Shown piece by piece: positions 1-11,602 of a stretch of 11,602 bases of DNA (within the stretch, counting starts at the first letter, position 1; each line of letters begins with the position of its first letter). This DNA is from a virus (taxonomy: Duplodnaviria; Heunggongvirae; Uroviricota; Caudoviricetes). The stretch covers positions 1 to 11,602 of the IMG/VR virus record IMGVR_UViG_2778261227_000016; one strand, written 5' to 3'. The translations under genes were made by a program, and so were the position numbers. Under the pieces are notes generated by a model. That model did not search any database and was not told the origin of the DNA. It saw only the letters and a list, made by a program, of their open reading frames with translations.

Positions 1-516
1 ATGAAATTTAAAAAATGTCTTCTGCCTGTGGCAATGTTAGCGTCATTCACTCTGGCAGGATGCCAGTCAAATGCTGACGATCATGCTGCCGATGTTTATC
101 AAACCGATCAACTGAATACCAAACAAGAAACTAAAACCGTTAATATTATTTCCATTCTTCCCGCAAAAGTTGCCGTAGACAACTCCCAAAATAAACGGAA
201 CGCACAAGCCTTCGGCGCGCTTATTGGCGCAGTCGCTGGCGGTGTTATCGGCCACAACGTCGGGTCTGGCAGCAATTCCGGAACGACGGCAGGTGCAGTT
301 GGCGGCGGAGCTGTAGGCGCGGCAGCGGGTTCTATGGTGAATGATAAAACCTTAGTGGAAGGTGTTTCTTTAACCTATAAGGAAGGCACCAAAGTGTATA
401 CCTCTACCCAGGTGGGTAAAGAGTGCCAGTTTACGACAGGTTTAGCCGTTGTTATTACCACGACGTATAACGAAACGCGTATTCAGCCAAATACTAAATG
501 TCCTGAAAAGAGCTAA
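1..516 (+). CDS. yfgH: Host lipoprotein with glycine-zipper region (YfgH-like)
   Basis: ATG at 1; lipoprotein signal with lipobox LAGC (MKFKKCLLPVAMLASFTLAGC); Gly/Ala-rich glycine-zipper stretch GALIGAVAGGVIGHNVG...GAVGGGAVGAAAG; 171 aa matches the size I recall for E. coli YfgH, and the adjacent same-strand 179-aa gene matches YfgI. Symbol is from recollection, not a search. Confidence 0.55.
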   Translation: MKFKKCLLPVAMLASFTLAGCQSNADDHAADVYQTDQLNTKQETKTVNIISILPAKVAVDNSQNKRNAQAFGALIGAVAGGVIGHNVGSGSNSGTTAGAVGGGAVGAAAGSMVNDKTLVEGVSLTYKEGTKVYTSTQVGKECQFTTGLAVVITTTYNETRIQPNTKCPEKS

Positions 517-531
517 TAATCAGGAGGAGTC

Positions 532-1071
532 ATGAAGAAAGTTTTTCTTTGCGCCATCTTGGCCTCCTTAAGCTATCCGGCTATCGCCTCATCATTGCAG
601 GATCAACTCTCTGCTGTAGCAGAAGCTGAACAGCAAGGTAAAAATGAAGAGCAAAGGCAGCATGACGAATGGGTCGCGGAGCGCAACAGGGAAATCCAGC
701 AAGAGAAGCAACGTCGCGCAAATGCCCAGGCCGCCGCTAACAAAAGAGCGGCAACGGCAGCGGCAAATAAGAAAGCTCGTCAGGATAAACTGGACGCCGA
801 AGCCTCTGCGGACAAAAAACGCGATCAAAGTTATGAAGATGAGCTACGCAGCTTAGAGATTCAGAAACAAAAACTGGCGCTGGCAAAAGAAGAAGCCCGC
901 GTTAAGCGAGAAAACGAATTTATCGATCAGGAACTGAAGCACAAAGCTGCGCAAACCGATGTGGTGCAATCTGAAGCTGACGCCAACAGAAATATGACTG
1001 AAGGCGGTCGCGATCTGATGAAAAGCGTGGGCAAAGCAGAAGAGAACAAATCGGACAGCTGGTTTAATTAA
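532..1071 (+). CDS. yfgI: Host secreted charged/coiled-coil protein (YfgI-like)
   Basis: ATG at 532 preceded by AGGAGG (521-526); N-terminal signal peptide MKKVFLCAILASLSYPAIA; K/E/Q/A-rich low-complexity body; 179 aa, 15 bp downstream of the yfgH-like gene on the same strand, as in the E. coli yfgH-yfgI pair (recollection). Confidence 0.5.
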   Translation: MKKVFLCAILASLSYPAIASSLQDQLSAVAEAEQQGKNEEQRQHDEWVAERNREIQQEKQRRANAQAAANKRAATAAANKKARQDKLDAEASADKKRDQSYEDELRSLEIQKQKLALAKEEARVKRENEFIDQELKHKAAQTDVVQSEADANRNMTEGGRDLMKSVGKAEENKSDSWFN

Positions 1072-1110
1072 TCGATGTTAGTAACTTCAAGCCTATGATT
1101 CTTGAAGATA

Positions 1111-1145
1111 AAAAACCCTCTGTAGTAACAGAGGGTTTTGTTCAT
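1111..1145 (+). terminator. Rho-independent terminator after the yfgI-like gene
   Basis: Perfect 7-bp stem CCCTCTG (1116-1122) / CAGAGGG (1129-1135), loop TAGTAA, followed by TTTTGTTCATTC; an A-run on the 5-prime side makes it potentially bidirectional. Confidence 0.7.
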
Positions 1146-1172
1146 TCATAGTGCAGGGATTAAAATCATTCC

Positions 1173-1209
1173 CACTCAATTATTTACGGATACCATAACC
1201 AATTGAGTG
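1173..1209. repeat. 9-bp perfect inverted repeat CACTCAATT / AATTGAGTG with 19-bp spacer in the host-prophage junction
   Basis: CACTCAATT at 1173-1181 and its reverse complement AATTGAGTG at 1201-1209, between the host terminator and the spanin stop codons; candidate att-arm or recombinase-binding element. Confidence 0.3.
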
Positions 1210-1290
1210 ATAACATTTTTAAAAAGATGAATTTTTCCCGTACCGTTTTATATACCGTCACCGGAAATCAGTACCATGAAAAATGCCATG

Positions 1291-1773
1291 CTATCTGTTC
1301 ATGGTGTCGTACTGTTTTTCGCAGACTCTTCCGGCTTCGGCTGCCCGGTCAGCATACTCTGCCAGTTGTCTGTTTCTCTCGAGAGATTTGCTGAGCACGT
1401 CGGCAAGCAAAACTCCGGTGTCTGCGGCTGACGACCCAGCGCCGACAATGGCGTTATAGTGCCTGAGCTGCTCACGGATGGCAACGAGCTGTTGCTGCAA
1501 CCGGCCAGCGCGAGCGGCAGCATCAAGAGCATCATTGCGCGCCTGGTCGATCCTCTGCTGCGCTTCACGTTCATTGATCGCTTTCTCCTGTTCGTAGTGC
1601 TGACGAACTATCTCATCTTCGGTTTTGCGGTCTTCTTTCGCCTGTGCATACCCGGCATCGTACTGACGACTGCCGTGTACACTCCAGGCAACAACTCCTG
1701 ATATGGCCAGAACAGCAAGCGCCGCCATTATAATCAACTGTTTACGGTATGCTTTTACGAATGCCCAGATCAT
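1291..1773 (-). CDS. Rz-like inner-membrane spanin (i-spanin)
   Basis: 160 aa; N-terminal TM helix ([18 protein letters not shown]) then a charged coiled-coil-like periplasmic region ([50 protein letters not shown]); ATG at 1773 overlaps the endolysin stop as ATGA (1773-1770); contains an embedded lipoprotein ORF in another frame. Confidence 0.75.
1299..1574 (-). CDS. Rz1-like outer-membrane lipoprotein spanin (o-spanin), embedded in the Rz-like gene
   Basis: ATG at 1574 with AGGAGA about 8 nt upstream on the minus strand; lipobox LAGC after a hydrophobic run ([13 protein letters not shown]); Pro/Ser-rich mature region; lies wholly inside the i-spanin gene in a different frame, the classic embedded Rz/Rz1 architecture. 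Confidence 0.7.
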   Translation of the reverse strand: MNVKRSRGSTRRAMMLLMLPLALAGCSNSSLPSVSSSGTITPLSALGRQPQTPEFCLPTCSANLSRETDNWQSMLTGQPKPEESAKNSTTP

Positions 1774-2399
1774 ACAGCCAGCACCTTACTGGCAGTGACG
1801 TACCGCGAGCGCCGGTCGTCGATGCCATTCCGGCCACCATTGATAATCAGAGTTACACGTGCAATATCTCCGGGATACTTCATGCAGCCTTTGCTGGAGA
1901 AGAACCACGCCGCGCTACGAGCCGCGTATTCGTCCTGCGTCAACAGCTCAGGATTCTCCAGCAGGTCCACTTTTAGGCCGTTTCCGCAGTCACGATAGTT
2001 ATTCAAACCGGTAATCTGGATAAGCCCGCGCCCACGGTAATTCCAGCCATCGCCGGGAGCATTGTTACCCATGCGTTTGCTGTATACCAGATTTGCGATC
2101 GCGCGCTGGCGCTCAAGTGGCAATGGTGGTTCACCAGCACGGCGACCAAGTGCATTAGCCTGCACCTGAGTGAGACGCCCAGCCCGAACGAAGTTAGCCA
2201 GTCCGCTGACACTGTAGTTGAAATTCTCCTGCAACCTGGTGAAACCACCAGACTCATGCCCGACCTGAGCAATAAACATTGCCTGATCTTCTGCTTTGCT
2301 GATACCAAACTCTTTCATCGCAGAAGTTATATGCGAGAACCAGCGTGCGGCCAGCGCCTCGCTAATACCAGCAGCTCGCTGGAATTGTTTAATCTCCAT
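1770..2399 (-). CDS. Endolysin, glycoside hydrolase family 19 (chitinase-like) type
   Basis: Start placed at the internal ATG 2399-2397 ([11 protein letters not shown]...) with GAGG Shine-Dalgarno just upstream; the 77-residue upstream extension in the ORF track is rejected. Contains the GH19-like motif [10 protein letters not shown] and [12 protein letters not shown]; about 209 aa; sits between holin-like genes and the spanins. Confidence 0.8.
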
Positions 2400-2697
2400 G
2401 TTTAGACCTCGATACTTTGAAAATTTGAACGACGTTACCGCGCGTTTTAATAACCGCAGCGAGCATGACAGCGTTGATAATGACCTCAGATAAATCCACA
2501 GCCATTGGCGTGCGTAACCAGATTGCATAGACGACACGAACAGGAATACTTGCCGCAGCAACAATAAGGAAATAAGCAAGCCACCCTCCCCATCTTCGAT
2601 GTTGAGAGCCGTTACGCCGGAATGTGACAACGCGAATTGCTATGCCAGTACAAATGACTGCATTGGTGATAAGCAAAAAAAACTCATGCGTTACCAT
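2389..2697 (-). CDS. Small membrane protein in the lysis cassette (second holin or antiholin candidate)
   Basis: 102 aa; ATG at 2697 with GGGAGA upstream; two or three hydrophobic helices ([16 protein letters not shown]; [23 protein letters not shown]); its 3-prime end overlaps the endolysin start by 11 nt. Confidence 0.5.
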
Positions 2698-3088
2698 CGT
2701 CTTTTCTCCCCGGAATTAACTCGCGTGGATTATCGGAACGGTGATAGAGCCATATACCAATACGCACAGCAACAATTGCTGACACGAATGCGCCAGCTGA
2801 GAAAACAATCCCTTTTTCAAAAGAGTCCTGCGTGATGGTAGGGATCAGGCTGGCTATGCCGATAAGAATTGATGCTGCTGGTTTATAAAAAAGAAGGCCG
2901 CAGAGAAAGCTAAGCATCGACAAGAGTACACGACGACGAATAGGATACTCTACCGCAGAGGTAACAAAAATCACCGCCCCAGCCAAAGCCCCCAAAGCAA
3001 CCTCAGGAGGAACTCCTGCTATCACCGCCGCCAGAGAACTCATGCTAAGCCACTGATTTAAAGTTTCACTGGTTAGTTGAGCTGACAT
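2684..3088 (-). CDS. Holin-like multi-pass membrane protein
   Basis: ORF-track start at 3097 is GTG; I prefer the in-frame ATG at 3088-3086 (MSAQLTSE...) with GGTGGA about 7 nt upstream. About 134 aa with 3-4 hydrophobic helices and a charged C-terminal tail ([18 protein letters not shown]); first gene of the lysis cluster. Confidence 0.5.
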   Translation of the reverse strand: MSAQLTSETLNQWLSMSSLAAVIAGVPPEVALGALAGAVIFVTSAVEYPIRRRVLLSMLSFLCGLLFYKPAASILIGIASLIPTITQDSFEKGIVFSAGAFVSAIVAVRIGIWLYHRSDNPRELIPGRKDDGNA

Positions 3089-3192
3089 GTTTTCCACCGT
3101 TTACTGTGCATAAAGACCCCCATTAGTTGGTGATCACATCATACACAATAAACCATATATGGTTAAACCTGACTAAGATTGCTCTTAACGAA

Positions 3193-3209
3193 ATTACCCG
3201 AAAGGTGAT
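3193..3209. promoter_or_regulatory. Dyad motif copy a: ATTACC-cgaaa-GGTGAT (candidate operator)
   Basis: In the divergent intergenic region between the holin-like gene and the acyltransferase gene, 38 nt upstream of the acyltransferase ATG; shares both half-sites with copies at 6703, 7083 and 8122. Confidence 0.4.
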
Positions 3210-3246
3210 ATCATTGACGTATCATATGATTTTGTGAAAAAAAATT

Positions 3247-4302
3247 ATGCTAGAAGAGAAAAAAAGCCACGCCATTGATTATGTAAAGTGTATTGGTATT
3301 GTTCTTGTTATATTTGGTCATTACCCAAATACAATTATCAATATACTAAAGCCATACATGTATCACATGCCTCTATTTTTCTTCTTGGGTGGGATTCTTT
3401 TTAATACAAAAAAAGGAAGTATAAAGCACTATAAAAACTTAGCAATTAAATATCTACTATACATAATTATGTCGTATGTTTTTTTGGGATTGACTGTTAA
3501 GTTAATGCATTATTTGTTTGAAACTCAAGACAAATTAATTTACGTTAACAATCTTTATGATTCTGTGATGTTTGCACTGAAAAGCAATTTTCACAACAAT
3601 CCGTTATTTATGGTTGGATGGTTTTTATTGAGCTATATGCTCGTTCTTGTAGTTGCATATCCATTTTACAAAATAATTGAGACGTATTTAAACGAGACGA
3701 CAGCGAAAGTTTTTTCTTTTACGATTGGACTCGCTATTGGATACGTGGCGATTACATATGTATCACCAATGTACAAAGAAAGCAAGATGTTCTATTTTAA
3801 CACTCTATGTCAGGTGATGGTTGGTTTGTCATTCTTCATGATCGGCTACGCCGCCAAAAATGTGATATGGAAATTTCTAAATCCATATACTACATTTACC
3901 TTGTTTTTATCCGTTATTTTCTTTCGTCAGTCTGGATTAATCACGAATTTATATATGTCATGGAGCACTTACGCAGATGGTTTTGTCATGAGCCTAGTTG
4001 GTGCGTTAATTGGAATTTATATAATATTTTTCTTTGCCGACCTGTTTTCAAAAGCTGGCGACTATAAATTAATGCGTATGGTTGGCAGTGAAAGTAAGGC
4101 TATAATGACGTTTCATATGTTAAGTTTCACGATAGTTGACATTATTTTCTCGCTACTAGGTTTCTATACAGTTGATAAAAAGCAGATACTCAATCACTTT
4201 ACATCAGCTTATTCCCTTCCTTTGAATATATTAATCGCAATATTCCTGTCTATTTTATTAGGGAAAGCATTAAGGAAGTTATCTAAAGGCGTATACGCAT
4301 GA
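3247..4302 (+). CDS. Acyltransferase family 3-like integral membrane protein (candidate O-antigen/LPS O-acetyltransferase; AT-rich accessory gene)
   Basis: 351 aa, about 10 hydrophobic helices; N-terminal motif DYVKCIGIVLVIFGHY resembles the conserved first-helix Asp/Arg...His motif of acyltransferase-3 (Oac/OafA-type) enzymes; strongly AT-rich (17 of 60 G+C in 3301-3360); opposite strand to and directly beside the tailspike gene. No obvious Shine-Dalgarno before the ATG. Confidence 0.5.
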   Translation: MLEEKKSHAIDYVKCIGIVLVIFGHYPNTIINILKPYMYHMPLFFFLGGILFNTKKGSIKHYKNLAIKYLLYIIMSYVFLGLTVKLMHYLFETQDKLIYVNNLYDSVMFALKSNFHNNPLFMVGWFLLSYMLVLVVAYPFYKIIETYLNETTAKVFSFTIGLAIGYVAITYVSPMYKESKMFYFNTLCQVMVGLSFFMIGYAAKNVIWKFLNPYTTFTLFLSVIFFRQSGLITNLYMSWSTYADGFVMSLVGALIGIYIIFFFADLFSKAGDYKLMRMVGSESKAIMTFHMLSFTIVDIIFSLLGFYTVDKKQILNHFTSAYSLPLNILIAIFLSILLGKALRKLSKGVYA

Positions 4303-4320
4303 AGCCCCTTTTGGGGCTTC
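4301..4320. terminator. Stem-loop between the convergent acyltransferase and tailspike genes (bidirectional terminator candidate)
   Basis: Perfect 8-bp stem GAAGCCCC (4301-4308) / GGGGCTTC (4313-4320) with TTTT loop, between stop codons at 4300-4302 (+) and 4329-4331 (-); no long U-tract on either side. Confidence 0.5.
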
Positions 4321-4328
4321 TAAATGAA

Positions 4329-6599
4329 TTACGGAACTCGCGTTAGTACGTTATTATTCCAGTAACATTCACCACTCGCCAGACCGGTAGCTGAAGTAGG
4401 AAGAGTGAGTTTCATTGAGAGGTTAGTCAACTCAATCTTGTCGGTGTCATAAGACCCAAGCCGCAGTCTGTTCGAGCTTAACAATCTTGTGCTATCATTT
4501 GAAAACGAAAAAGAGGTACTATTTATCCTTACATTACCAATTGTTGTTGCAGACGCACCACTTGGAAATCCTCCATTAAAATTATCAAAAATATCATTCA
4601 GAGATCCTGATACTGAAACTCCAGAAACACCGTTCGTCACAGTTACAATTTGCTGTTGTGCATCACAAGAATCTGTTAATAAATTGCCAATAAGAGTACC
4701 TGCTGTAATTGAAATGTGGTTACCTATAATCTTGTTATCACCATGTGTTATATCAACGATATTGGTGCACGCCCCGATATGCTGGATATTGATATGGTTG
4801 CCACGTAACTCACCACTTGGTTGAGCGTTATTGGGTCCTTTAAGGTTAACATCGACACGGCATACGCCATTAAACATTATGTTGATTTTGTTGTTGTACC
4901 CTCTTCTTACTCTCAGTGGGCTGTCAATCGTGCCGTAGTTGGCAGAATTCATTGCGGTGAGCTCAACATCAATATCCGCTGAGCGATCCAGCAATACCAA
5001 CCCCTCGTCTAACTCCTTACCCGACACTGATCCCAACCCGCAGTTTAGCGCGTAGATATCTTTGAAACTACCGAACGAAATATCTGTAGCATAGCTTGGT
5101 GTCACCATTTCTCTGACGTTTCTTATCACTCGATCACAGTTCTCAGCGGAACAATTATAGTAGTGAACGTCTGTTGCAGTAGTCCATTCGCCAACACCAT
5201 TTTCACGACCAACAAATTCAAATGCTGATGAGCAACTTTCAACTTTTGCACCTTCAATTCTTATATTATCAACGCCGTATTCCCAGTTAAACGCCTTCCC
5301 GCCTGCTGAGTATTGTGATGACGAACCTCTGCGGCAGTTACGTATCACGCCACCAATCGACAAAACGTTCCTGCATTTACTACCGCTGATACCATTTTCA
5401 CCTTGCACATCAGACGTCGGATAACCAATATTCCCCCCATCTATATGTGGATTAATGAAACGTACATTTTCAACAGGATTACTATAAGTCCCCAGCACAG
5501 CAATCACTCCACCAATAGTTGATTTGGCAGTTAGCGTAATAAATGATGGCTTCAGCCATTCCATAGTCACATTACTAGGAACAACGATGTTATCAGAAAT
5601 TGGATATACCATTTCTTCAGTTATGATAACGCGAACACCAAATTTTGATGCTGCATTAACCGCCCCCTGAAGTCCATACAAAGTATCCGTATCAGATGGC
5701 GTAACACCAAAATCCTCTGGTGTTATATCGAATGCAGAGCGAACCCACTTCAGAGCACCACTACCAGCGACAACACCTCCATCATCTAAATCAGAGGTCG
5801 CCTTTGCGATAAACTCACCGCCACCCAACAAGGATCCAGAATGCCAGCCTTTCAACAAAATCCTCTGGCCTTCAAACTCCGGAAAAATAGAACGCAACTC
5901 ATTGAAACTATTACATTGCCCAATGCGCTTGAAACCATCAGGCTTTGCTAACTCTATAAGAACGTCTGAGGCTGACCCAGAAGGTGGTGTTATAACAATA
6001 ACGTTACCACTGTTATCAAAAGCTGGCATTTTATTGCGTCTGCCATCAACGTCAGGAAGTTGGTTTATTGGCTCAGGTACGCGAAGAGTTCTGCTAAAAT
6101 TTCCTGATGCGAGGCTATCCACATAATTTTTTGTTGCAGCATCCTGCGGTCTTACTGGATCACGTAAATTTCTGATGTAATTATTCATCGCATCATAATA
6201 GTTTGCAGCAAACGATGGCTTACGAAGCGCCAGTCTGAACCAATTACGAGTTTGCTGAATCAGCATAGTTAGTTTATCAAATGCATCCTCATGCACCTCA
6301 GCAAAAAACTTACCCTGGTTACGCAGATCTGTCTCCTGCGTAACCAGGAGCTCTCGAGAGATAGATATCTGATGACCGTTTGCCAATGCCTTCGACAAAA
6401 TTACATTGCCACCATTATATCCTCCAGCCCCGGTAACAGAGTAATCAGTATCCAGTTTCAACACCGTGATGTTTTCATTGAGGTCAGCAATCTGAACGGT
6501 CAAGTCTGACTTTTTGAAAATTCTGAATGTATACGGAAATGATGTCGTTACGCCGTTACCAGTGTATTCGTTGTGATCAACTTCGGTTGAGACCGTCAT
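4329..6599 (-). CDS. Tailspike / tail fiber protein with beta-helix-type receptor-binding (depolymerase-like) body
   Basis: 756 aa; ATG at 6599 with GGAGA about 8 nt upstream; N-terminus MTVSTEVDHNEYTGNGVTTSFPYTFRIFKKSDLTVQ... resembles the conserved particle-attachment N-domain of podophage tailspikes (recollection); central and C-terminal region rich in Gly/Asn/Ser/Thr/Val repeats typical of right-handed beta-helix folds; the 3-prime third is visibly more AT-rich than the 5-prime part. Confidence 0.8.
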   Translation of the reverse strand: MTVSTEVDHNEYTGNGVTTSFPYTFRIFKKSDLTVQIADLNENITVLKLDTDYSVTGAGGYNGGNVILSKALANGHQISISRELLVTQETDLRNQGKFFAEVHEDAFDKLTMLIQQTRNWFRLALRKPSFAANYYDAMNNYIRNLRDPVRPQDAATKNYVDSLASGNFSRTLRVPEPINQLPDVDGRRNKMPAFDNSGNVIVITPPSGSASDVLIELAKPDGFKRIGQCNSFNELRSIFPEFEGQRILLKGWHSGSLLGGGEFIAKATSDLDDGGVVAGSGALKWVRSAFDITPEDFGVTPSDTDTLYGLQGAVNAASKFGVRVIITEEMVYPISDNIVVPSNVTMEWLKPSFITLTAKSTIGGVIAVLGTYSNPVENVRFINPHIDGGNIGYPTSDVQGENGISGSKCRNVLSIGGVIRNCRRGSSSQYSAGGKAFNWEYGVDNIRIEGAKVESCSSAFEFVGRENGVGEWTTATDVHYYNCSAENCDRVIRNVREMVTPSYATDISFGSFKDIYALNCGLGSVSGKELDEGLVLLDRSADIDVELTAMNSANYGTIDSPLRVRRGYNNKINIMFNGVCRVDVNLKGPNNAQPSGELRGNHINIQHIGACTNIVDITHGDNKIIGNHISITAGTLIGNLLTDSCDAQQQIVTVTNGVSGVSVSGSLNDIFDNFNGGFPSGASATTIGNVRINSTSFSFSNDSTRLLSSNRLRLGSYDTDKIELTNLSMKLTLPTSATGLASGECYWNNNVLTRVP

Positions 6600-6702
6600 G
6601 TTAAATCTCCAGATAGTCGCAGCACCCGTTGCGCCGCATATCCGGTCATTCTATTACCTGAAAAACCACATATGGATAGATAACCCATAAATACGAACAG
6701 AT

Positions 6703-6719
6703 ATTACCTTTCAGGTGAT
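6703..6719. promoter_or_regulatory. Dyad motif copy b: ATTACC-tttca-GGTGAT (candidate operator)
   Basis: In the divergent region between the tailspike start (6599, minus) and the LexA-box promoter of the antirepressor locus; identical half-sites to copy a. Confidence 0.4.
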
Positions 6720-6755
6720 TCGCAAAACGTGCTGGATAGCAAGCAAATTATTTGA

Positions 6756-6775
6756 TACTGTATAAATATACAGTT
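6756..6775 (+). promoter_or_regulatory. LexA (SOS) box overlapping a promoter upstream of the antirepressor locus
   Basis: TACTGTATAAATATACAGTT matches the E. coli LexA consensus TACTGT-(AT)4-ACAGTA: CTGT 6758-6761, an 8-nt A/T-only spacer, ACAG 6770-6773. Overlaps a -35-like TTGATA (6752-6757); the first ATG with a Shine-Dalgarno (GGAGA 6783-6787) is at 6795. Confidence 0.65.
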
Positions 6776-6794
6776 ATTGCATGGAGAAGATAAG

Positions 6795-7052
6795 ATGCAG
6801 CAGTATCACTATCCACTGGAAGACGGATTTACCGAAAGGATTCACACGCCGGGAGGCGTCAGGTCACTAGTGGAGGGATCGCACTTGATGAAATTACTCC
6901 GGGATCTCGATAAGGATGGATTTAATGTCGATGGCCCACTTGCCGAACTGACTGCACTGATTAACTACGTCACCAGCTCACAGATGTCTATGCGGGATCT
7001 GCAAACACATCTCGACTATTGTGCCGAACAATTACGAAAACAAACCAGATAA
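6795..7052 (+). CDS. Small protein paralogous to the C-terminal domain of the downstream antirepressor
   Basis: ORF-track start at 6777 is TTG; I prefer ATG 6795 (MQQYHYPLEDG...) with GGAGA upstream; 85 aa. Residues HTPGGVRSLVEGSHLMKLLRDLDKDGFNVDGPLAELTALINYVTSSQMSMRDLQTHLDYC align by eye with the C-terminus of the 7365-8051 product (HSPSGVLGLTENSLLMNLLNQLQDDGHDVSGAAAELTTMFCYIVGVSKCLRDIQTHAEYI), about 40 percent identity. Confidence 0.5.
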   Translation: MQQYHYPLEDGFTERIHTPGGVRSLVEGSHLMKLLRDLDKDGFNVDGPLAELTALINYVTSSQMSMRDLQTHLDYCAEQLRKQTR

Positions 7053-7082
7053 GGTTTGCAATTACCAAATGGAGTGCTTATA

Positions 7083-7099
7083 TTTACCTTTGCGGTAAA
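7083..7099. promoter_or_regulatory. Dyad motif copy c: TTTACC-tttgc-GGTAAA (candidate operator) overlapping a promoter-like element
   Basis: Perfect palindrome arms ATTTACC / GGTAAAT; immediately downstream of -35-like TTGCAA (7055-7060) and -10-like TATATT (7079-7084), i.e. at the -10/+1 position typical of repressor operators. Confidence 0.4.
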
Positions 7100-7191
7100 T
7101 TTACATCACACTCCTCTTGTGCCATAGTAATCGGGCACTGGCAAAATCCAGTGCCGGGATTGGCGTCCCGAGTTACTACAGAGGCACATAT

Positions 7192-7211
7192 GCCGCATAA
7201 GCGGTTTTTTT
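7192..7211 (+). terminator. Weak intrinsic terminator / attenuator-like hairpin in the antirepressor leader
   Basis: Short stem GCCGC (7192-7196) / GCGG(T) (7201-7205), loop ATAA, followed by a run of seven T (7205-7211); lies in a roughly 310-nt untranslated leader that also holds an 8-bp-stem hairpin (7134-7155) and a GAAA-tetraloop hairpin (about 7251-7266). Confidence 0.3.
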
Positions 7212-7364
7212 ATGTGTAAAGCGCACCTATTCTATGGTGGGCTGTGTGGGGGCACCGAAAGGTGCGCCGGGTCCTTTGTAGCCGGTTACGCCAACCCTGC
7301 ACAGTTCACCACCAACCGATTGGCGTCGGTAGTGGTGATTAACCTAACTACAAAGGTGATCGCT

Positions 7365-8051
7365 ATGACTGCTAACGTAACCCCATCTGTTTTTCATTTT
7401 GAATCAGAAGCAACCATTCGAGCCATTGTTATTGATGGAAATCCTTGGTTTGTTGCCAAAGACGTTATTAAAGCTCTTCAACTGACAAACCCCACTATGT
7501 CAATAAAATCTCTTGATGATGATGAAAGGGCTAAATTTAACTTAGGCCGTCAAGGCGAAACCAATATTATCAACGAGTCAGGCCTCTACACACTGATCCT
7601 CCGCTGCCGCGATGCGGTGACACCAGGCACTACCCCCTACCGCTTTCGTAAATGGGTTACAGGTGAGGTTCTTCCTCAGATCCGCCGCACCGGAAGTTAC
7701 ATTAAAAACTCGCTCCCGCAGGAAGAACGCATAAAGATGGTTGCCGACCAGGTAGCCAGCGCCACAGCATCAGCAGTGATGCAGGCAATGAAGGTAGAGA
7801 ACAAAACCTACAGCGCCCCACTGAAGCCCGGCTACCGCAGCCTGATTCATTCGCCGTCTGGTGTTCTCGGCCTGACGGAGAACTCACTGCTGATGAATCT
7901 GCTGAACCAGTTACAGGACGACGGGCACGACGTATCGGGCGCGGCGGCGGAGCTGACCACCATGTTCTGCTACATCGTCGGTGTGAGCAAATGCCTGCGT
8001 GATATCCAGACACACGCGGAGTACATCAACGACAAAGCAGGGTTCTTCTGA
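7365..8051 (+). CDS. Phage antirepressor with N-terminal Bro-N/AntA domain
   Basis: Start placed at ATG 7365 (MTANVTPSVF...) with AAGGTG upstream; the Cys/Gly-rich upstream extension in the ORF track (from 7212, directly after a T-run) is rejected. Bro-N signature IRAIVIDGNPWFVAKDVIKAL...ESGLYTLILRCRDAVTPGTTPYRFRKWVTGEVLPQI; 228 aa. Confidence 0.8.
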   Translation: MTANVTPSVFHFESEATIRAIVIDGNPWFVAKDVIKALQLTNPTMSIKSLDDDERAKFNLGRQGETNIINESGLYTLILRCRDAVTPGTTPYRFRKWVTGEVLPQIRRTGSYIKNSLPQEERIKMVADQVASATASAVMQAMKVENKTYSAPLKPGYRSLIHSPSGVLGLTENSLLMNLLNQLQDDGHDVSGAAAELTTMFCYIVGVSKCLRDIQTHAEYINDKAGFF

Positions 8052-8121
8052 CGGGCGGCGGCACAGGGATGTGCCTTTAAATAATTCTGTACAGATTGCA
8101 GACTGGGGGTGAATAGCGTAC

Positions 8122-8138
8122 TATTACCTTAAAGGTAA
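8122..8138. promoter_or_regulatory. Dyad motif copy d: ATTACC-ttaaa-GGTAAA (candidate operator) upstream of the two-gene module
   Basis: About 45 nt upstream of the 8181 ATG; overlaps a weak promoter-like element (-35-like TTGCAG 8096-8101, -10-like TACTAT 8119-8124). Confidence 0.4.
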
Positions 8139-8180
8139 ACCTGTTTTTATTTTATACCTGTAACTTACCGGAGATTAAAG

Positions 8181-8507
8181 ATGACAAAACTTGGATTCGT
8201 GATGAGAGGTCCGGTAAGAAGCGGAACTCATGCAAAGCGTAGCAAGAGTCGTATTTTTACTGGTAAGGTTGTAGCACGTAAATCAGCTATTGGCTCGTTC
8301 AATAGTGAAAATGCGGCATTGCGCCATATTTTTATCAGCACAAAGCCAAGAGCATCCGCTGATGTGCATACAATGACTATTCCTATCACAAAGAATATAA
8401 AGCGGATAAAAAAGCTCTCATCTGCAGAATCAAAAGAGATATCTTTCCGCCAGCTTAACTCATTAGAAACGCATATGAAGGAAGAGGAATTCGATGTTTT
8501 TGAGTGA
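8181..8507 (+). CDS. Small basic protein with acidic C-terminal tail; putative antitoxin/partner of the downstream gene
   Basis: 108 aa; ATG 8181 with GGAG (8170-8173); Lys/Arg-rich N-terminal half (KRSKSRIFTGKVVARKS), acidic C-terminus HMKEEEFDVFE; its stop overlaps the next ORF start by 14 nt (translational coupling); AT-rich. Confidence 0.45.
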   Translation: MTKLGFVMRGPVRSGTHAKRSKSRIFTGKVVARKSAIGSFNSENAALRHIFISTKPRASADVHTMTIPITKNIKRIKKLSSAESKEISFRQLNSLETHMKEEEFDVFE

Positions 8508-9006
8508 GTATAGCGGGAAGGTTATACCTACTGGTGAGTTTAAAACTGATGACTTTCTGATTTCGCTAAAAGATGCTTTTAAACAACACTGGCGTCATGG
8601 TCATCATCCTGATCTGGGAAAAGATACTCTTTTTGAAAGACCAGACGAAGTATTAGGTTTCCATCTCAGAAAGGTTCATGTCAATATTGGTGAATATGCA
8701 TCATATTCATACTCATGTACTGAACAGTGTTGGGATGAGTGGTCATATGGATTGATTGATGAACAAGGAAATTACAGGCCAAAACCAACCAGTAACGCAT
8801 ATCTCATATATGCAGTCAATGAAATAAGAGATGCAGCCTTACTAGCTTATTGGGACCCGCCCGCACACACCAAAGCTAACGCAAAAGTTTGGATGGATTC
8901 CGTATTGAATTTCACAAAATTATTTCATGAACGAACGAATACAGCTCCACTTAGTAGAAATGTTTATCCGTGGGATTATTCGTACAAATCCAAAAAGCCT
9001 GCATAG
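8494..9006 (+). CDS. Putative toxin, YafO-like (type II toxin family) by motif resemblance; function unverified
   Basis: 170 aa; ATG 8494 with GAGGAA upstream; motifs GFHLRKVHVNI, AYLIYAV and LLAYWDPPAHTKANAKVWMDSVLNFTKLF resemble the HIHL / LVY / LLxxILxPxxHxxA pattern I recall for YafO-family ribosome-dependent mRNA interferases. No HMM search was possible. AT-rich (20 of 60 G+C in 8521-8580). Confidence 0.4.
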   Translation: MFLSEYSGKVIPTGEFKTDDFLISLKDAFKQHWRHGHHPDLGKDTLFERPDEVLGFHLRKVHVNIGEYASYSYSCTEQCWDEWSYGLIDEQGNYRPKPTSNAYLIYAVNEIRDAALLAYWDPPAHTKANAKVWMDSVLNFTKLFHERTNTAPLSRNVYPWDYSYKSKKPA

Positions 9007-9087
9007 TAGTTTTTTATGGACGAAACAAAAGTCAGTGCTACACTCATTGACGCCACATTGAGGTTGATTATAGATGGAAATTTCACA

Positions 9088-9249
9088 ATGAAAAAAGCAT
9101 TTGCTGCACTGTTCGTTTTGTTGTCTCTGGTAGCTTCAACTCAGGCCTTTGCCGGTCGTTGTCAGCACGACAGCGATACTGCCGCTGACGGCTCCCGCTG
9201 CGGTGGGCGTTCTGCGGATTCCCGCCCGGGTGGCGGTGGCATTCGTTAA
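9088..9249 (+). CDS. Small secreted peptide (signal peptide plus about 31-aa Cys/Gly-rich mature peptide)
   Basis: Start placed at ATG 9088 (MKKAFAALFVLLSLVASTQAFA-GRCQHDSDTAADGSRCGGRSADSRPGGGGIR); typical Sec signal peptide with AxA cleavage site; two Cys in the mature part; the ORF-track start at 9016 lacks a Shine-Dalgarno and would put 24 residues before the signal peptide. Confidence 0.4.
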   Translation: MKKAFAALFVLLSLVASTQAFAGRCQHDSDTAADGSRCGGRSADSRPGGGGIR

Positions 9250-9272
9250 AAACAAGGCCGAGAAAGCGGCCT
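9246..9272 (-). terminator. Rho-independent terminator ending the minus-strand virion/membrane-protein unit (possibly bidirectional)
   Basis: 6-bp GC-rich stem AGGCCG (9255-9260) / CGGCCT (9267-9272), loop AGAAAG; on the minus strand the hairpin is followed by TGTTTTTAA (complement of 9246-9254); lies between the + peptide stop (9247-9249) and the minus-strand 98-aa gene stop (9281-9283). Confidence 0.55.
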
Positions 9273-9280
9273 GTGACATG

Positions 9281-9577
9281 TCACGTTCCTTTTCTGAATG
9301 ATAGCCGTTCGAAAAATGATGACATTCCACCGCAGACAATAGCAAAGATGATCCCACCAAAGAAGAGAAGGCCAGCCTGCCACCACTCCCACCGCCATAC
9401 ATCCACAGCGCCAATCATACCAACAATCGCTCCAACAAACGGAATATAACTCACGACAAAAGCAACGGGAGCTGCAATTACCCAGTGCAACCCCCACCAT
9501 GATTCAAGCCCAGCCATAATTGCTGCCAACTGAAAAAGACCAACGACGATATAAACAATGAATCCTATAGCTTGCAT
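9281..9577 (-). CDS. Small three-helix membrane protein of unknown function
   Basis: 98 aa; ATG 9577 with AGGTGA about 5 nt upstream; hydrophobic helices (IGFIVYIVVGLFQLAAIMAGL; VIAAPVAFVVSYIPFVGAIVGMIGAV; AGLLFFGGIIFAIVCGGM), Trp-rich loop WRWEWWQ; the overlapping ORF-track entries 9136-9414 and 9246-9500 are rejected. Confidence 0.55.
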   Translation of the reverse strand: MQAIGFIVYIVVGLFQLAAIMAGLESWWGLHWVIAAPVAFVVSYIPFVGAIVGMIGAVDVWRWEWWQAGLLFFGGIIFAIVCGGMSSFFERLSFRKGT

Positions 9578-9589
9578 GTAGTCACCTAT

Positions 9590-9763
9590 TTACCCATTAA
9601 AAATCAGAGGCCTCCCCTCAATAAGGCTTGCAACAAGAACTACTCCCTGCACAACAAAGATGAACCAGCAAATAGCTTGAGTCTGAGGGTTAAGAAAATA
9701 TTTGTAGCGGTCAATAAATAACAATCCACCAGAAATTATCACACTCAAAATAATTAAAAACAC
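9590..9763 (-). CDS. Unlisted small hydrophobic ORF (57 aa, GTG start) between the large virion gene and the 98-aa membrane gene
   Basis: Hand translation of the minus strand: (GTG)FLIILSVIISGGLLFIDRYKYFLNPQTQAICWFIFVVQGVVLVASLIEGRPLIFNG, stop TAA at 9592-9590; AAGGAAG precedes the GTG and overlaps the large gene's stop; two predicted TM helices; fills a 195-bp gap and ends 13 nt before the next gene's ATG. Absent from the ORF track, presumably below its length cutoff. Confidence 0.35.
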   Translation of the reverse strand: MFLIILSVIISGGLLFIDRYKYFLNPQTQAICWFIFVVQGVVLVASLIEGRPLIFNG

Positions 9764-9772
9764 AACACTTCC

Positions 9773-11602
9773 TTATTGCGGAGTGACATCCTGAGGTCGC
9801 CACCAGTATGTCTGGTTAAACTCTTTCTTCGAACGTTGCTCCATTTTACGCAAATATCCTGGTGAAAAATACTCCTGCATCTGGTTAAAGATCATGTGAT
9901 CGAGAGCCGCCTTCAAGTACCAGAGATTCGCACCAGGCATCAAACCTTTCCCCAGCTTCACCAGATCACCACCAGTCTGCTCACTCTTCCCTTCCACAGC
10001 ATTTAACGGTATGCCCTGAGCAATCTTCACTACGTCATCAACCAGACCAGCTACCGGGCCAAGCATCGACGCCAGCGCGCCGCTTCCGTACCTAGTGTGA
10101 TCTGACAATAAAAAGTCACCATAAAGGCCAAGACCACCACCTTTCAGTAGAGCACCAAGCCAGAATTTTGCGGCATCTTCTCCTGTCATCTCTCGAGGAT
10201 TACGACCAGACGCAAGGTCGTTAAGTTGTTGCGACAAAGCGCCAAGAATGGTCGTACTGGCAATAAACGTCGCAATATATGCCGCACGCCCACCAGCAGA
10301 CGGCATACCCATAGCGCGTGACCAGTGACGCATAACAACCGAGATAGGGAACGATTTAAACAGGAAAACACTTCTCGTTAATTCACCTTTCCATGTTCCA
10401 CGCTGAAGACCAGACCCTACGAACATCTGTTCACGTGCGCCCGGTGTAATAACAGCCATATCAACTTCTTCAGTTACGGCACCGAGCAGTTTACGCATTG
10501 CCTCAAATTTCACACGTTCAGGCTCACCAAGATGTTTAACTGCTGAATCAGGGATACGCATAATGCTTTCCGGTGTCAGCATCGTATTATTACCGTTCCC
10601 CCAGTCCTCCTGTTGCGCCAGCTTCCATACGCTCCAGTCTGTGTCAGTAATCCCTTTGCTTTTCAGGATACGAAAATCAGAGTCATCGAGGCTACGAAGG
10701 TCTGGTGTCCGTGACACTACTTCTCCTAGGCTTCCCATCATAGTTACGCCATAGGCGCGCTTGTGCGCATCTGACCATGCTGTAAGCCCACTGGCACGCA
10801 TTACCGCCGTTGCCGCCCAACGAGACACAGACGGCCCCATATTATCCATCGCCCAGCGGTTAACGCTGCCAAGTAGAGATTCCATCGCCAGACCAGCTCG
10901 GCGCGCCCGCGCAAGCTCAGTACGGTTCGTTGGGTCCATAGCTTCAAGCTGGTTGCGGAATAACTGGTTCATTGGAAGGTTGGTAACCTTCGCAGACAGA
11001 TACATGGTTCCAAGATCAGAGAACGATGACAGCAACGCGGATCCGAGTCTGCTGGCAACCAGCCAGTTGCGGATATTGTCAGACCATCGCGCGATGTGCG
11101 GATTCGCTACAGGCTGTGTCTTTCCGGAAATAAAGTTGTACAGGTTCTCTGTTTTGTTCGCCAGCCGCTCGACGCTACCGGTTTTACTCGGGTTAGCTGT
11201 TGCCGTTTCAGCCTTCACCTGATCAAGAAGGGAACGGAAAACATGATCGGGGTTTGGGCCATATGTTTCCACCAGAGCAATATCTTTACTGATCCCTTCC
11301 AAGTGACCGACCATGATTTCCCATAGAGAGCGATCGCCATAAAGTTGCTGATATTGCAGATAGGAATCTGCATCTTTGAAATGTATCTGTCGTGATGCAT
11401 TACCACGGTTAGAACGTGCGCCGGAAATTCGCATTCCGGTATCAGTAAGCTTATTCAGCCCACCAGTAGCGATCGTGTTATAAGCCTCTCCAAGAAATGC
11501 AGACAACTCAGCATCGTTCATCAGTTGTGAACCGCCCCGGGAATCCTGGAGACTAAACTTCCTGAGAAAGAGGTAAACAGGATGACTAAAAATACTCGTT
11601 TT
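9773..11602 (-). CDS. Large phage virion/ejection-type structural protein, partial (N-terminus beyond window end)
   Basis: The ORF-track entry starts at ATG 11521, but the frame stays open upstream to 11602 (hand translation ...KTSIFSHPVYLFLRKFSLQDSRGGSQL-MNDAELSAF...), so the gene probably starts outside the window; at least 609 codons; no enzymatic motif recognised; Gly-rich C-terminal segment (LKGGGLGLYGDFLLSDHTRYGSGALASMLGPVAGLVDD); same strand as and directly upstream of two small membrane-protein genes. Confidence 0.6.
   Translation of the reverse strand, partial: KTSIFSHPVYLFLRKFSLQDSRGGSQLMNDAELSAFLGEAYNTIATGGLNKLTDTGMRISGARSNRGNASRQIHFKDADSYLQYQQLYGDRSLWEIMVGHLEGISKDIALVETYGPNPDHVFRSLLDQVKAETATANPSKTGSVERLANKTENLYNFISGKTQPVANPHIARWSDNIRNWLVASRLGSALLSSFSDLGTMYLSAKVTNLPMNQLFRNQLEAMDPTNRTELARARRAGLAMESLLGSVNRWAMDNMGPSVSRWAATAVMRASGLTAWSDAHKRAYGVTMMGSLGEVVSRTPDLRSLDDSDFRILKSKGITDTDWSVWKLAQQEDWGNGNNTMLTPESIMRIPDSAVKHLGEPERVKFEAMRKLLGAVTEEVDMAVITPGAREQMFVGSGLQRGTWKGELTRSVFLFKSFPISVVMRHWSRAMGMPSAGGRAAYIATFIASTTILGALSQQLNDLASGRNPREMTGEDAAKFWLGALLKGGGLGLYGDFLLSDHTRYGSGALASMLGPVAGLVDDVVKIAQGIPLNAVEGKSEQTGGDLVKLGKGLMPGANLWYLKAALDHMIFNQMQEYFSPGYLRKMEQRSKKEFNQTYWWRPQDVTPQ

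Follow-up and report, generated by a model that had tools for sequence, protein, structure and literature searches.

Two antirepressor genes sharing a homologous domain in an epsilon15-like prophage of Escherichia coli: probable separate gating by LexA and by an IsrK/C4 RNA module

Architecture of the locus

The stretch of DNA analysed here, referred to as the window, spans 11,602 nucleotides (nt) of a virus of the class Caudoviricetes (IMG/VR record IMGVR_UViG_2778261227_000016, positions 1 to 11,602). It belongs to an epsilon15-like (Uetakevirus) Escherichia coli prophage and carries the antirepression locus of that prophage. Two genes face the same direction at this locus: a short one, ant, whose product of 85 amino acids (aa) resembles the antirepressor of Salmonella phage SPC32H, and a longer one encoding a 228-aa protein in which a Bro-N domain is fused to a C-terminal domain (C-domain) homologous to the short protein. 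A LexA (SOS) box precedes ant, and the 312-bp gap between the two genes accommodates an operator-like palindrome, a separate promoter, an IsrK-type RNA with its terminator and a C4 antisense RNA (Table 1). These components point to a locus in which two antirepressor genes with one shared homologous domain are probably gated separately, one through a LexA-Ant module and the other through an IsrK/C4 module. The parts, their order, their complementarities and their co-evolution are observed features, on the strength of which C4 would act as the gate of the second gene.

Table 1. Features of the antirepression locus and of the adjoining part of the window (a strand of '.' denotes a palindromic element)
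Feature	Position	Strand	Basis or remark
Operator-like palindrome TTACCTTTCAGGTGA	6704-6718	.	∼34 bp 5' of the ant -35-like hexamer, in the divergent tailspike/ant intergenic region
-35-like TTGATA of the ant promoter	6752-6757	+	Read from sequence; overlaps the SOS box
LexA (SOS) box TACTGTATAAATATACAGTT	6756-6775	.	Sequence match and conserved position; LexA binding predicted
ant, small (85 aa) SPC32H-type antirepressor	6795-7052	+	Shine-Dalgarno GGAG 6783-6786; phmmer, tblastn and PHROG matches
Operator-like palindrome TTACCTTTGCGGTAA	7084-7098	.	Abuts the -35 of the isrK promoter
Candidate promoter PisrK	7100-7128	+	Promoter scan; predicted start ∼7135, the first isrK-model nucleotide
c4-a1b1 target motif RF03163	7122-7174	+	Rfam, 44.3 bits (gathering score 46.7)
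IsrK-type RNA	7135-7211	+	Rfam isrK RF01394, 74.2 bits (gathering score 50), full length
b1, putative C4 target (decoy) in IsrK	7160-7166	+	Hairpin loop
a1, putative C4 target (decoy) in IsrK	7176-7184	+	
IsrK intrinsic terminator	stem 7192-7205, T-run to 7211	+	Terminator scan; the only one between the two genes
C4 antisense RNA	7230-7316	+	Rfam C4 RF01695, 79.5 bits (gathering score 45), model 1-87 of 87
C4 element a' CCUUUGUAG	7273-7281	+	Hairpin loop
C4 element b' ACGCCAA	7288-7294	+	Single-stranded
b2 UUGGCGU, downstream C4 target	7320-7326	+	
a2 CUACAAAGG, downstream C4 target	7348-7356	+	Contains the Bro-N gene Shine-Dalgarno
Putative second antirepressor, 228 aa	7365-8051	+	Bro-N domain fused to Ant-homologous C-domain
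Bro-N domain PF02498	aa 18-104, nt 7416-7676	+	Pfam, 73.1 bits (cut-off 25.6)
Ant-homologous C-domain	aa 147-224, nt 7803-8036	+	Matches 5D50_E, E 1.9e-13
Lysis cassette, oac-position gene and tailspike	1291-6599		DUF2514 spanin-like protein, GH19 endolysin, holins

The small antirepressor and its SOS box

All sequence-level comparisons identify the 85-aa protein as an ortholog of SPC32H Ant, the LexA-controlled inducer of epsilon15-like phages. A phmmer search against all PDB sequences matched a single entry, chain E of 5D50, named 'Anti-repressor protein' (E 1.4e-46), residues 2-84 aligning to residues 3-85 of that chain at ∼87% identity. By tblastn the identity of the protein is 86.7% to the annotated ant of SPC32H and of SPC32N, both Salmonella phages, and 83% to the corresponding open reading frame (ORF) of epsilon15; the protein also matches PHROG 450 with an E-value of 7e-48. 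A Pfam search with the same protein retrieved no family, the sole match being a weak, sub-threshold one to DUF724. According to the account of Kim & Ryu (2013) in the review PMC7380047, self-cleavage of LexA is followed by synthesis of the antirepressor, which blocks the repressor through protein-protein contact. The description in PMC9638917 adds that the SPC32H Ant tetramer binds the repressor, Rep, and frees it from DNA, an activity shown there for SPC32H Ant alone. The initial annotation of the window, made from the sequence, had envisaged a LexA-gated antirepressor and had suggested that the short protein might be the minimal module for repressor binding, produced first when the SOS response is induced; orthology to SPC32H Ant makes this essentially correct. 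Its alternative picture of the small protein as a satellite of a 'full-length Ant' does not hold: the protein is a characterized antirepressor that stands alone in SPC32H. Across E. coli and Salmonella phages the small Ant is ∼87% identical, yet the corresponding Reps are 42% identical (L007 33739-34335 compared with L006 32087-32671) and are accompanied by the same operator-like motif, discussed below.

The SOS box upstream of ant, already recognized in the initial annotation, agrees by manual count at 18 of 20 positions with the E. coli LexA consensus TACTGTATATATATACAGTA. The core CTGT-N8-ACAG is exact at 6758-6773, both arms being perfect, and the strict pattern TACTGT-N8-ACAGT occurs once in the window against 0.01 occurrences expected from shuffles. 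The loose pattern, CTGT-N8-ACAG with one mismatch allowed, is not enriched in the window (6 occurrences against 4.0 expected) and this statistic is not used as evidence; the case for the box consequently rests on the exact match and on conservation. The position of the box, ∼20 bp 5' of the start codon of the small ORF, is kept across related loci, including those of phages phiV10, ZX5 and Tyrion and of prophages of several other genera, and an exact CTGT-N8-ACAG occupies the homologous position in 10 of the 14 loci surveyed as well as in four further loci. Direct comparison of the SPC32H and SPC32N genomes reveals only two nucleotide differences, one of which converts ACAG into AAAG inside the box homologous to 6756-6775 (...ATACAGTG to ...ATAAAGTG). 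SPC32N reportedly forms clear plaques because the LexA site of its ant promoter bears a point mutation.

The overlap of the box with a -35-like TTGATA, another element of the initial annotation, is indeed present, and a TTGnTA-like hexamer is found in all five aligned phages (alignment A1). A second exact SOS box was sought in the window and none was found, and a direct role of LexA at the Bro-N gene was rejected on this ground.

The Bro-N protein and its Ant-like domain

The product of the second gene had been described as a Bro-N antirepressor, a domain assignment that the Pfam score bears out. The full protein matches PHROG 130, 'anti-repressor Ant', with an E-value of 1e-55, and PHROG 450 with an E-value of 6e-36. 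When the two proteins of the window are compared by BLASTP, 32 of 78 residues are identical (41%, E 3e-16) between residues 2-79 of the small protein and residues 147-224 of the large one, and profile-profile comparison of the small and large families returns a probability of 99.6% and an E-value of 9.8e-25 over 79 columns. The similarity of about 40% claimed at the outset is thus statistically sound and withstands the alignment test that had been named as a possible refutation, its extent being ∼78 residues and not the 'about 60' then given. Structure prediction, which had been proposed alongside alignment, contributed less. In the AlphaFold2 model of the Bro-N protein, for which 23 sequences were aligned, confidence is high in the N-terminal domain (N-domain), where the predicted local distance difference test score (pLDDT) is about 84-90. 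As the C-domain is modelled with low confidence, the structural route was dropped and homology rests on sequence and profile statistics.

Many residues are invariant in the C-domain family. The 228-aa protein is 81% identical overall to ORF4 of phage ZX5 and nearly identical from residue 72 on. When ORF4 was overexpressed, a 1000-fold drop in prophage titre, to 10^6 from 10^9, was reported together with a 75% loss of repressor mRNA (Li et al. 2022, PMC9782041). ZX5 shares the whole locus, including small ant, isrK and C4; its record gives the small Ant as a 'hypothetical protein' and annotates the C4 region as an 'ash family protein'. The N-domain shows a mosaic pattern: among E. coli phages, N-domains of 69% identity accompany C-domains of 97-100% identity. 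In phiV10 the Bro-N gene lies in two frameshifted pieces (L001 5180-5442), annotated as a 194-aa protein and a 29-aa ORF.

Promoter, IsrK RNA and operator-like palindromes

The candidate promoter PisrK displays a -35 hexamer TTTACA (7100-7105), a 17-nt spacer and an extended -10 composed of TG (7120-7121) and CATAGT (7123-7128). The promoter scan called the same hexamers independently in the Klebsiella prophage L017, and CTTGTGCCATAGT at PisrK is nearly invariant (alignment A5). The ant stop codon is located 83 nt 5' of the isrK +1; no terminator was found between this stop and isrK, nor between PisrK and the isrK terminator. In SPC32H, a terminator hairpin directly follows ant. Both isrK and C4 also score well above the Rfam gathering scores in 11 related loci. 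The initial annotation regarded the Bro-N gene as simply driven by the LexA box, a notion that finds no support given the palindrome, dedicated promoter, terminator, IsrK and C4, all overlooked at that stage, that intervene.

The palindrome abutting PisrK is one instance of a motif, TTACC-N5-GGTRA, that is enriched in the window: 11 strand-hits are observed against 0.99 expected, a number reached by none of 200 shuffles. The site upstream of ant keeps its position in all 14 surveyed loci, and a perfect palindrome is present ∼51 nt 5' of the isrK +1 in 10 of the 11 loci that bear the module, with invariant half-sites and a varying spacer. In both phiV10 and SPC32H three copies of the motif are disposed between rep and a divergent cro-like gene, a cluster lies beyond the repressor gene, and single sites occupy intergenic regions that include those upstream of int, on the oac/holin side and between tailspike and ant. 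The motif looks like a genus-wide operator with a putative binder, presumably the phage repressor Rep or its Cro-like partner. If the palindrome at 7084-7098 is a repressor operator, PisrK would therefore be shut in the lysogen. Additional copies in the window are found at 3194-3208, in the oac/holin-side intergenic region, at 8124-8138, just 5' of the ORF that begins at 8181, and, with one mismatch, at 2950-2964.

The C4 antisense RNA and its targets

In the minimum free energy fold of C4 (-45.2 kcal/mol) the elements a' and b' are both unpaired, and a tRNA-like 3' end, UCACCACCA, is visible on the molecule. The C4 RNA of phage P1 is processed from an operon transcript by RNase P. Perfect Watson-Crick complementarity connects a' with a2 over 9 nt and b' with b2 over 7 nt, and a2 contains the AAGG of the Shine-Dalgarno sequence, 8 nt 5' of the Bro-N ATG at 7365. 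Within the IsrK RNA, a' also pairs with a1, with one G-U pair, and b' also matches b1. Two predicted C4 elements, each provided with an upstream and a downstream target, are the design of P1/P7 c4.

The evolution of these pairings was followed across 11 module-bearing loci, consisting of phiV10, ZX5, Tyrion, a Klebsiella phage and prophages of six genera, namely Citrobacter, 'Ca. Erwinia', Superficieibacter, Scandinavium, Kluyvera and Klebsiella. For C4 with a2/b2, 97.7% of the cells are paired and 7 of the 16 pairs exhibit compensatory change, a number attained by 1 of 500 shuffles; controls with slid partners are 25-49% paired. For C4 with a1/b1 the corresponding values are 98.2% of the cells and 9 of 16 pairs (0 of 500 shuffles), and 35-50% in the slid-partner controls. 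In both pairings the observed paired percentage and covariation score exceeded those of every shuffle. Across the 11 loci, a change in one copy of an element is matched in its other two copies. The b element falls into three classes, ACGCCAA/TTGGCGT in six loci, AGACCAA/TTGGTCT in four and GTCTCAA/TTGAGAC in one, and the a element exists in at least four forms, one of which lacks a single nucleotide at matching places in a', a1 and a2. Further a/b combinations appear in four extra loci of E. coli and Salmonella (L019-L022). This compensatory evolution of C4 and its targets indicates that the antisense interactions are under selection and diversify as an immunity specificity would.

Among E. 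coli prophages with a nearly identical small Ant, different C4 classes are encountered: a2 is CTAAGTGG in L019-L021 and CTACAAAGG in the window. In the Salmonella locus L022 neither a TTGGCGT nor a TTGGTCT motif is present at the b2 position, the b site compared in that locus. The differing a/b classes of the E. coli and Salmonella loci suggest the existence of several immunity groups.

A number of ORFs have been called across C4. The 279-aa form of the Bro-N protein, which starts at ATG 7212 and is favoured by many gene callers, was rejected, as it has no Shine-Dalgarno sequence and crosses the isrK terminator tail and C4. Besides this 7212-7364 extension, the called ORFs include the 'ash family protein' of ZX5 (L009 2150-2263) and a 271-aa in-frame version in Klebsiella pneumoniae ATCC 13883 (L017 4296-5111). 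Related loci carry 1-nt and other non-triplet insertions or deletions across the 7212-7364 region, and the frames over C4 vary, being fused in frame in L017 and forming a separate small ORF in ZX5. Because the frames differ between loci and the insertions and deletions are not multiples of three, these ORFs are most likely artefacts. The 5' part of C4 contains an AUG (7234) from which a frame of only 15 codons runs to a UAG inside a' (7279-7281). In our reading this AUG corresponds to the first start of orf45 of the Salmonella prophage Gifsy-1, and Gifsy-1 'orf45' may represent the same region as the ORFs called over C4. A coupled leader ORF of the orf45 type, conserved across the loci compared, was not found; the locus may work in an isrK-like manner that dispenses with the orf45 coupling step.

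An isrK-C4 cassette also occurs outside this group of phages. In the Shiga toxin (Stx) 2a-converting phage F723 (L018 1903-2809), a version ∼85% identical over C4 and b2 precedes the gene for a 224-aa 'antirepressor protein', which has no similarity to the Bro-N protein of the window detectable by BLASTP (E 0.23). The cassette is seen in about 140 Stx phage records. Its location in front of an unrelated antirepressor in Stx2a phages implies that it is portable and travels independently of the protein that it controls.

Distribution and evolution of the dual locus

The initial annotation had considered the split and duplicated arrangement unusual, a view that the survey reverses: the small Ant and the Bro-N module are paired, with intact ORFs, in 11 of the 14 surveyed loci from nine genera, and again in L019-L022. 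The latter were retrieved through the Bro-N protein itself, and the same architecture surrounds two more distant members of the family in E. coli and Salmonella genomes. Among the 14 loci, SPC32H and two others lack the module. The dual form is the majority state in the relatives, SPC32H being the reduced, small-only exception. The Ant-like domain occurs in 32 records of the phage collection, all of them epsilon15-like, and the fused form only where the small Ant co-occurs; the family of Bro-N proteins with an Ant domain is widespread in Enterobacteriaceae. Roughly 1000 E. coli genomes gave matches. The paralogs are ∼40% identical in every genome, and across genera the small Ant is 60-87% and the C-domain 54-78% identical. 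These levels of divergence suggest an old duplication of which both copies have been retained. In Klebsiella prophages extra genes are lodged between small ant and PisrK (L017 3511-4048; L004 3846-4103), the L017 insert comprising a strong terminator and a 166-aa membrane-like ORF. In the searchable literature no description was found of tandem LexA-gated and C4/IsrK-gated antirepressors that share a homologous domain, and the dual form as the common state, with SPC32H as its reduced version, is likewise not noted there.

A two-antirepressor switch and its alternatives

A coherent sequence of events can be proposed for this locus. In the lysogen, LexA bound to the SOS box would close the ant promoter, the phage repressor would close PisrK and C4 would silence any read-through message. 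DNA damage would remove LexA, and the 85-aa Ant would be made. By analogy with its SPC32H ortholog, Ant would take the non-cleavable phage repressor Rep off its operators, whereupon PisrK would fire. Most PisrK transcripts would stop at the IsrK terminator, and C4 would be produced from read-through alone. Its a' and b' elements would pair with a2 and b2, covering the Bro-N Shine-Dalgarno as the P1 c4 RNA does at icd/ant, and the short IsrK-type RNAs, with their a1/b1 decoys, would release translation as IsrK does for anrP in Gifsy-1. Once IsrK outnumbered C4, the second antirepressor would follow as a delayed, thresholded wave, which may reinforce commitment or act on related repressors. The many a/b specificity classes suggest that C4 is also a trans-acting determinant of immunity, silencing the Bro-N gene in incoming relatives of the same a/b class.

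An extension of this scheme, on which we place rather little confidence, is that the SOS-induced ant mRNA itself ends in an IsrK-like 3' untranslated region with a1/b1 decoys, so that antirepressor and C4 sponge would be delivered in one transcript. The idea stems from the fact that, in the window as in most relatives, no terminator lies downstream of the ant promoter before that of IsrK. The Klebsiella prophage L017, with its terminator and inserted gene between ant and PisrK, speaks against it. If true, the ant mRNA would constitute a protein-plus-RNA feed-forward switch linking LexA to antisense immunity of the P1 type.

Several points weigh against the separately gated pair of antirepressors. 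LexA and Rep binding, transcription starts, C4 processing and the IsrK/C4 ratio are all inferred for this locus. At the ant promoter there is no convincing -10 hexamer and the promoter scan made no call at the site. The c4-a1b1 motif falls just under its gathering score (44.3 against 46.7). The assignment of the palindromes to Rep is based on the location of the sites; the motif is kept between phages whose Reps are 42% identical, and another protein, for example the Cro-like product, could therefore be the binder. The Ant-like C-domain is poorly modelled (pLDDT about 43-61), and a Foldseek search of the model against the PDB gave no match with E <= 0.001 and did not recover 5D50, returning only weak SKI/Dachshund-like matches to the N-domain. 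At only 41% identity of the C-domain to Ant, binding of Rep by the Bro-N protein is a proposal. Finally, phiV10 is viable with a frameshifted copy, and the Bro-N gene therefore appears dispensable.

Other interpretations of the same parts deserve consideration. The simplest is that of a single LexA-driven operon, both proteins being made on SOS induction and the 85-aa product serving as a minimal module, competitor or modulator of a 'real' Bro-N antirepressor. The two genes are homologous, co-oriented and only 312 bp apart, and, with no terminator from the ant stop to isrK, transcription begun at the ant promoter probably continues into the gap between them. This explanation is nevertheless very unlikely: the terminator at 7192-7211, a conserved separate promoter and an antisense RNA over the Bro-N Shine-Dalgarno stand between the genes, Klebsiella prophages set them further apart by a strong terminator and an inserted gene, and the supposed accessory is a characterized antirepressor, the sole one in SPC32H. 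It also appears improbable that the Bro-N module is a passenger cassette acquired by recombination, with no role in the switch and with the Ant-like C-domain as a relic. The absence of the module from SPC32H and two other loci, the frameshift in phiV10 and the mosaic N-domain (69% identity beside C-domains of 97-100% in E. coli phages) are in keeping with such an origin. Against it stand the retention of the whole module, with intact ORFs, in 11 of 14 loci and nine genera, the three-way compensatory evolution of C4 and its targets, which implies ongoing selection, the many invariant residues of the C-domain, and the ZX5 overexpression phenotype, which argues for a function.

A further interpretation accepts the same parts and assigns them an outward role. 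The Bro-N protein would be an anti-immunity or cross-talk factor comparable with Ant of P1 and P22, inactivating, upon infection or induction, the Rep of related prophages that are resident or co-resident, and C4 would be mainly a trans-acting immunity determinant directed at the same gene of incoming phages with an identical a/b class. We regard this as possible, though less probable than the scheme proposed above. At least four a classes and three b classes exist among close relatives, several of them in E. coli phages with a nearly identical small Ant, and such diversity of C4 classes is the pattern expected of an immunity specificity of the P1/P7 kind. The gene is dispensable in phiV10, whose original record names its product 'putative anti-immunity protein', and the isrK-C4 cassette in front of the unrelated Stx2a antirepressor behaves as a portable immunity front end. 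Antirepressors that act in trans are documented in Salmonella prophages (PMC3121763). On the other hand, overexpression of the ZX5 ortholog acted on the lysogeny of its own phage, and the operator-like site at PisrK would make expression depend on whether the phage itself is repressed. An outward role is not exclusive of two separately gated antirepressors.

The analysis of this locus has a number of implications. Public records label a characterized antirepressor 'hypothetical protein' and call the C4 RNA as a protein, annotations that call for correction. SPC32H, the structural model of the switch, is a stripped-down exception, as a second, putatively RNA-gated antirepressor with a homologous domain is found in most of its relatives, whether in E. 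coli, Salmonella, Klebsiella, Enterobacter, Citrobacter or other genera. The locus provides a compact system in which to ask how SOS control and antisense-RNA immunity combine. The two paralogs may divide the labour between induction and commitment, or between a phage's own repressor and that of its neighbour, and which epsilon15-like prophages, among them phages of E. coli O157, are compatible in superinfection may depend on their C4 specificity classes.

Prophage context

The gene order of the window, with lysis genes, O-antigen acetyltransferase, tailspike, antirepressor locus and virion/ejection genes, matches that of phiV10 and of one E. coli prophage, and the slot between tailspike and virion genes is the one occupied by ant in SPC32H. 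The position of phiV10 oac (O-antigen acetyltransferase) is taken by a gene for a 351-aa membrane protein, and the tailspike is 756 aa long. The window ends short of the immunity region; a Rep homolog is present in close relatives. At the left end (1-1071) two ORFs of 171 and 179 aa have signal-peptide or lipoprotein-like starts and may be outside the prophage. As they are followed by the lysis cassette, the oac-position gene and the tailspike, the window probably includes one end of the prophage. Two overlapping genes follow the Bro-N gene, at 8181-8507 (108 aa, PHROG 5933) and 8494-9006 (170 aa). The 170-aa product is labelled a YafO-family type II toxin by the annotation pipeline PGAP in near-identical prophages, and it scores 19.7 bits against Pfam YafO_toxin, below the cut-off of 25. 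The pair may be a toxin-antitoxin or defence moron behind an operator-like site.

Comparison with known systems

The initial annotation had drawn a parallel with Tum of coliphage 186 and with the Gifsy and Fels-2 prophages. Its LexA logic stands: like the window's Ant, Tum and the Gifsy proteins GfoA, GftA and GfhA are small LexA-repressed proteins that inactivate a non-cleavable repressor (PMC3121763; PMC7380047). The closest precedents are, instead of Tum or Fels-2, SPC32H Ant together with P1 c4 and Gifsy-1 IsrK. Tum/GfoA-type families did not surface in Pfam, PHROG and PDB searches of the 85-aa protein, with which no direct sequence comparison was made, and they are functional analogues and not the family of this protein.

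The Ant/Rep/LexA switch of SPC32H (Kim & Ryu 2013; Kim et al. 2016; PDB 5D50) shares with the window an Ant of ∼87% identity, the genomic slot, the distance of the SOS box and the position of the upstream operator-like palindrome. Unlike the window, SPC32H passes from ant directly to a terminator hairpin and has no isrK, C4 or Bro-N gene, and the Rep of the E. coli group is 42% identical to its own. In phage vB_EcoP_ZX5, ORF4 is an ortholog of the Bro-N protein at the same locus, with small ant, isrK and C4. The ZX5 study (PMC9782041) treats ORF4 as the antirepressor of the phage and does not mention LexA.

The immI region of P1 and P7 (c4, icd, ant) resembles the window in having a co-oriented C4-family RNA 5' of an antirepressor gene, with a' and b' matching both a1/b1 and a2/b2, a downstream target that covers a ribosome-binding site, and specificity classes that vary by compensatory change. 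The differences are considerable. In P1 immI, icd lies between c4 and ant and C1 acts at Op51. The window has no icd-like leader and no ORF in the 48 nt from C4 to the antirepressor gene, a2 covers the antirepressor's own Shine-Dalgarno, and a palindrome of the primary-repressor type, with a putative binder, does abut its promoter. Furthermore, its antirepressor is a fusion of Bro-N and Ant-like domains, an intrinsic terminator separates a1/b1 from C4, and a LexA-gated paralog lies immediately upstream.

In the isrK-orf45-anrP region of Gifsy-1 (PMC4825925) the isrK-family RNA ends in a leaky terminator, beyond which lie a processed RNA and the gene of an antirepressor, a succession that the window would share. 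In Gifsy-1 the short IsrK activates in trans the translation of anrP from the read-through mRNA (Hershko-Shalev et al. 2016, PMC4825925), and that processed RNA, named STnc1160, shows complementarity to IsrK (PMC4825925). The window differs in having neither a conserved coupling ORF of the orf45 type nor an AntQ-type antiterminator upstream. Gifsy prophages also hold LexA-controlled small antirepressors, encoded separately (PMC3121763), whereas in the window the LexA-gated and the putatively RNA-gated antirepressors are adjacent paralogs.

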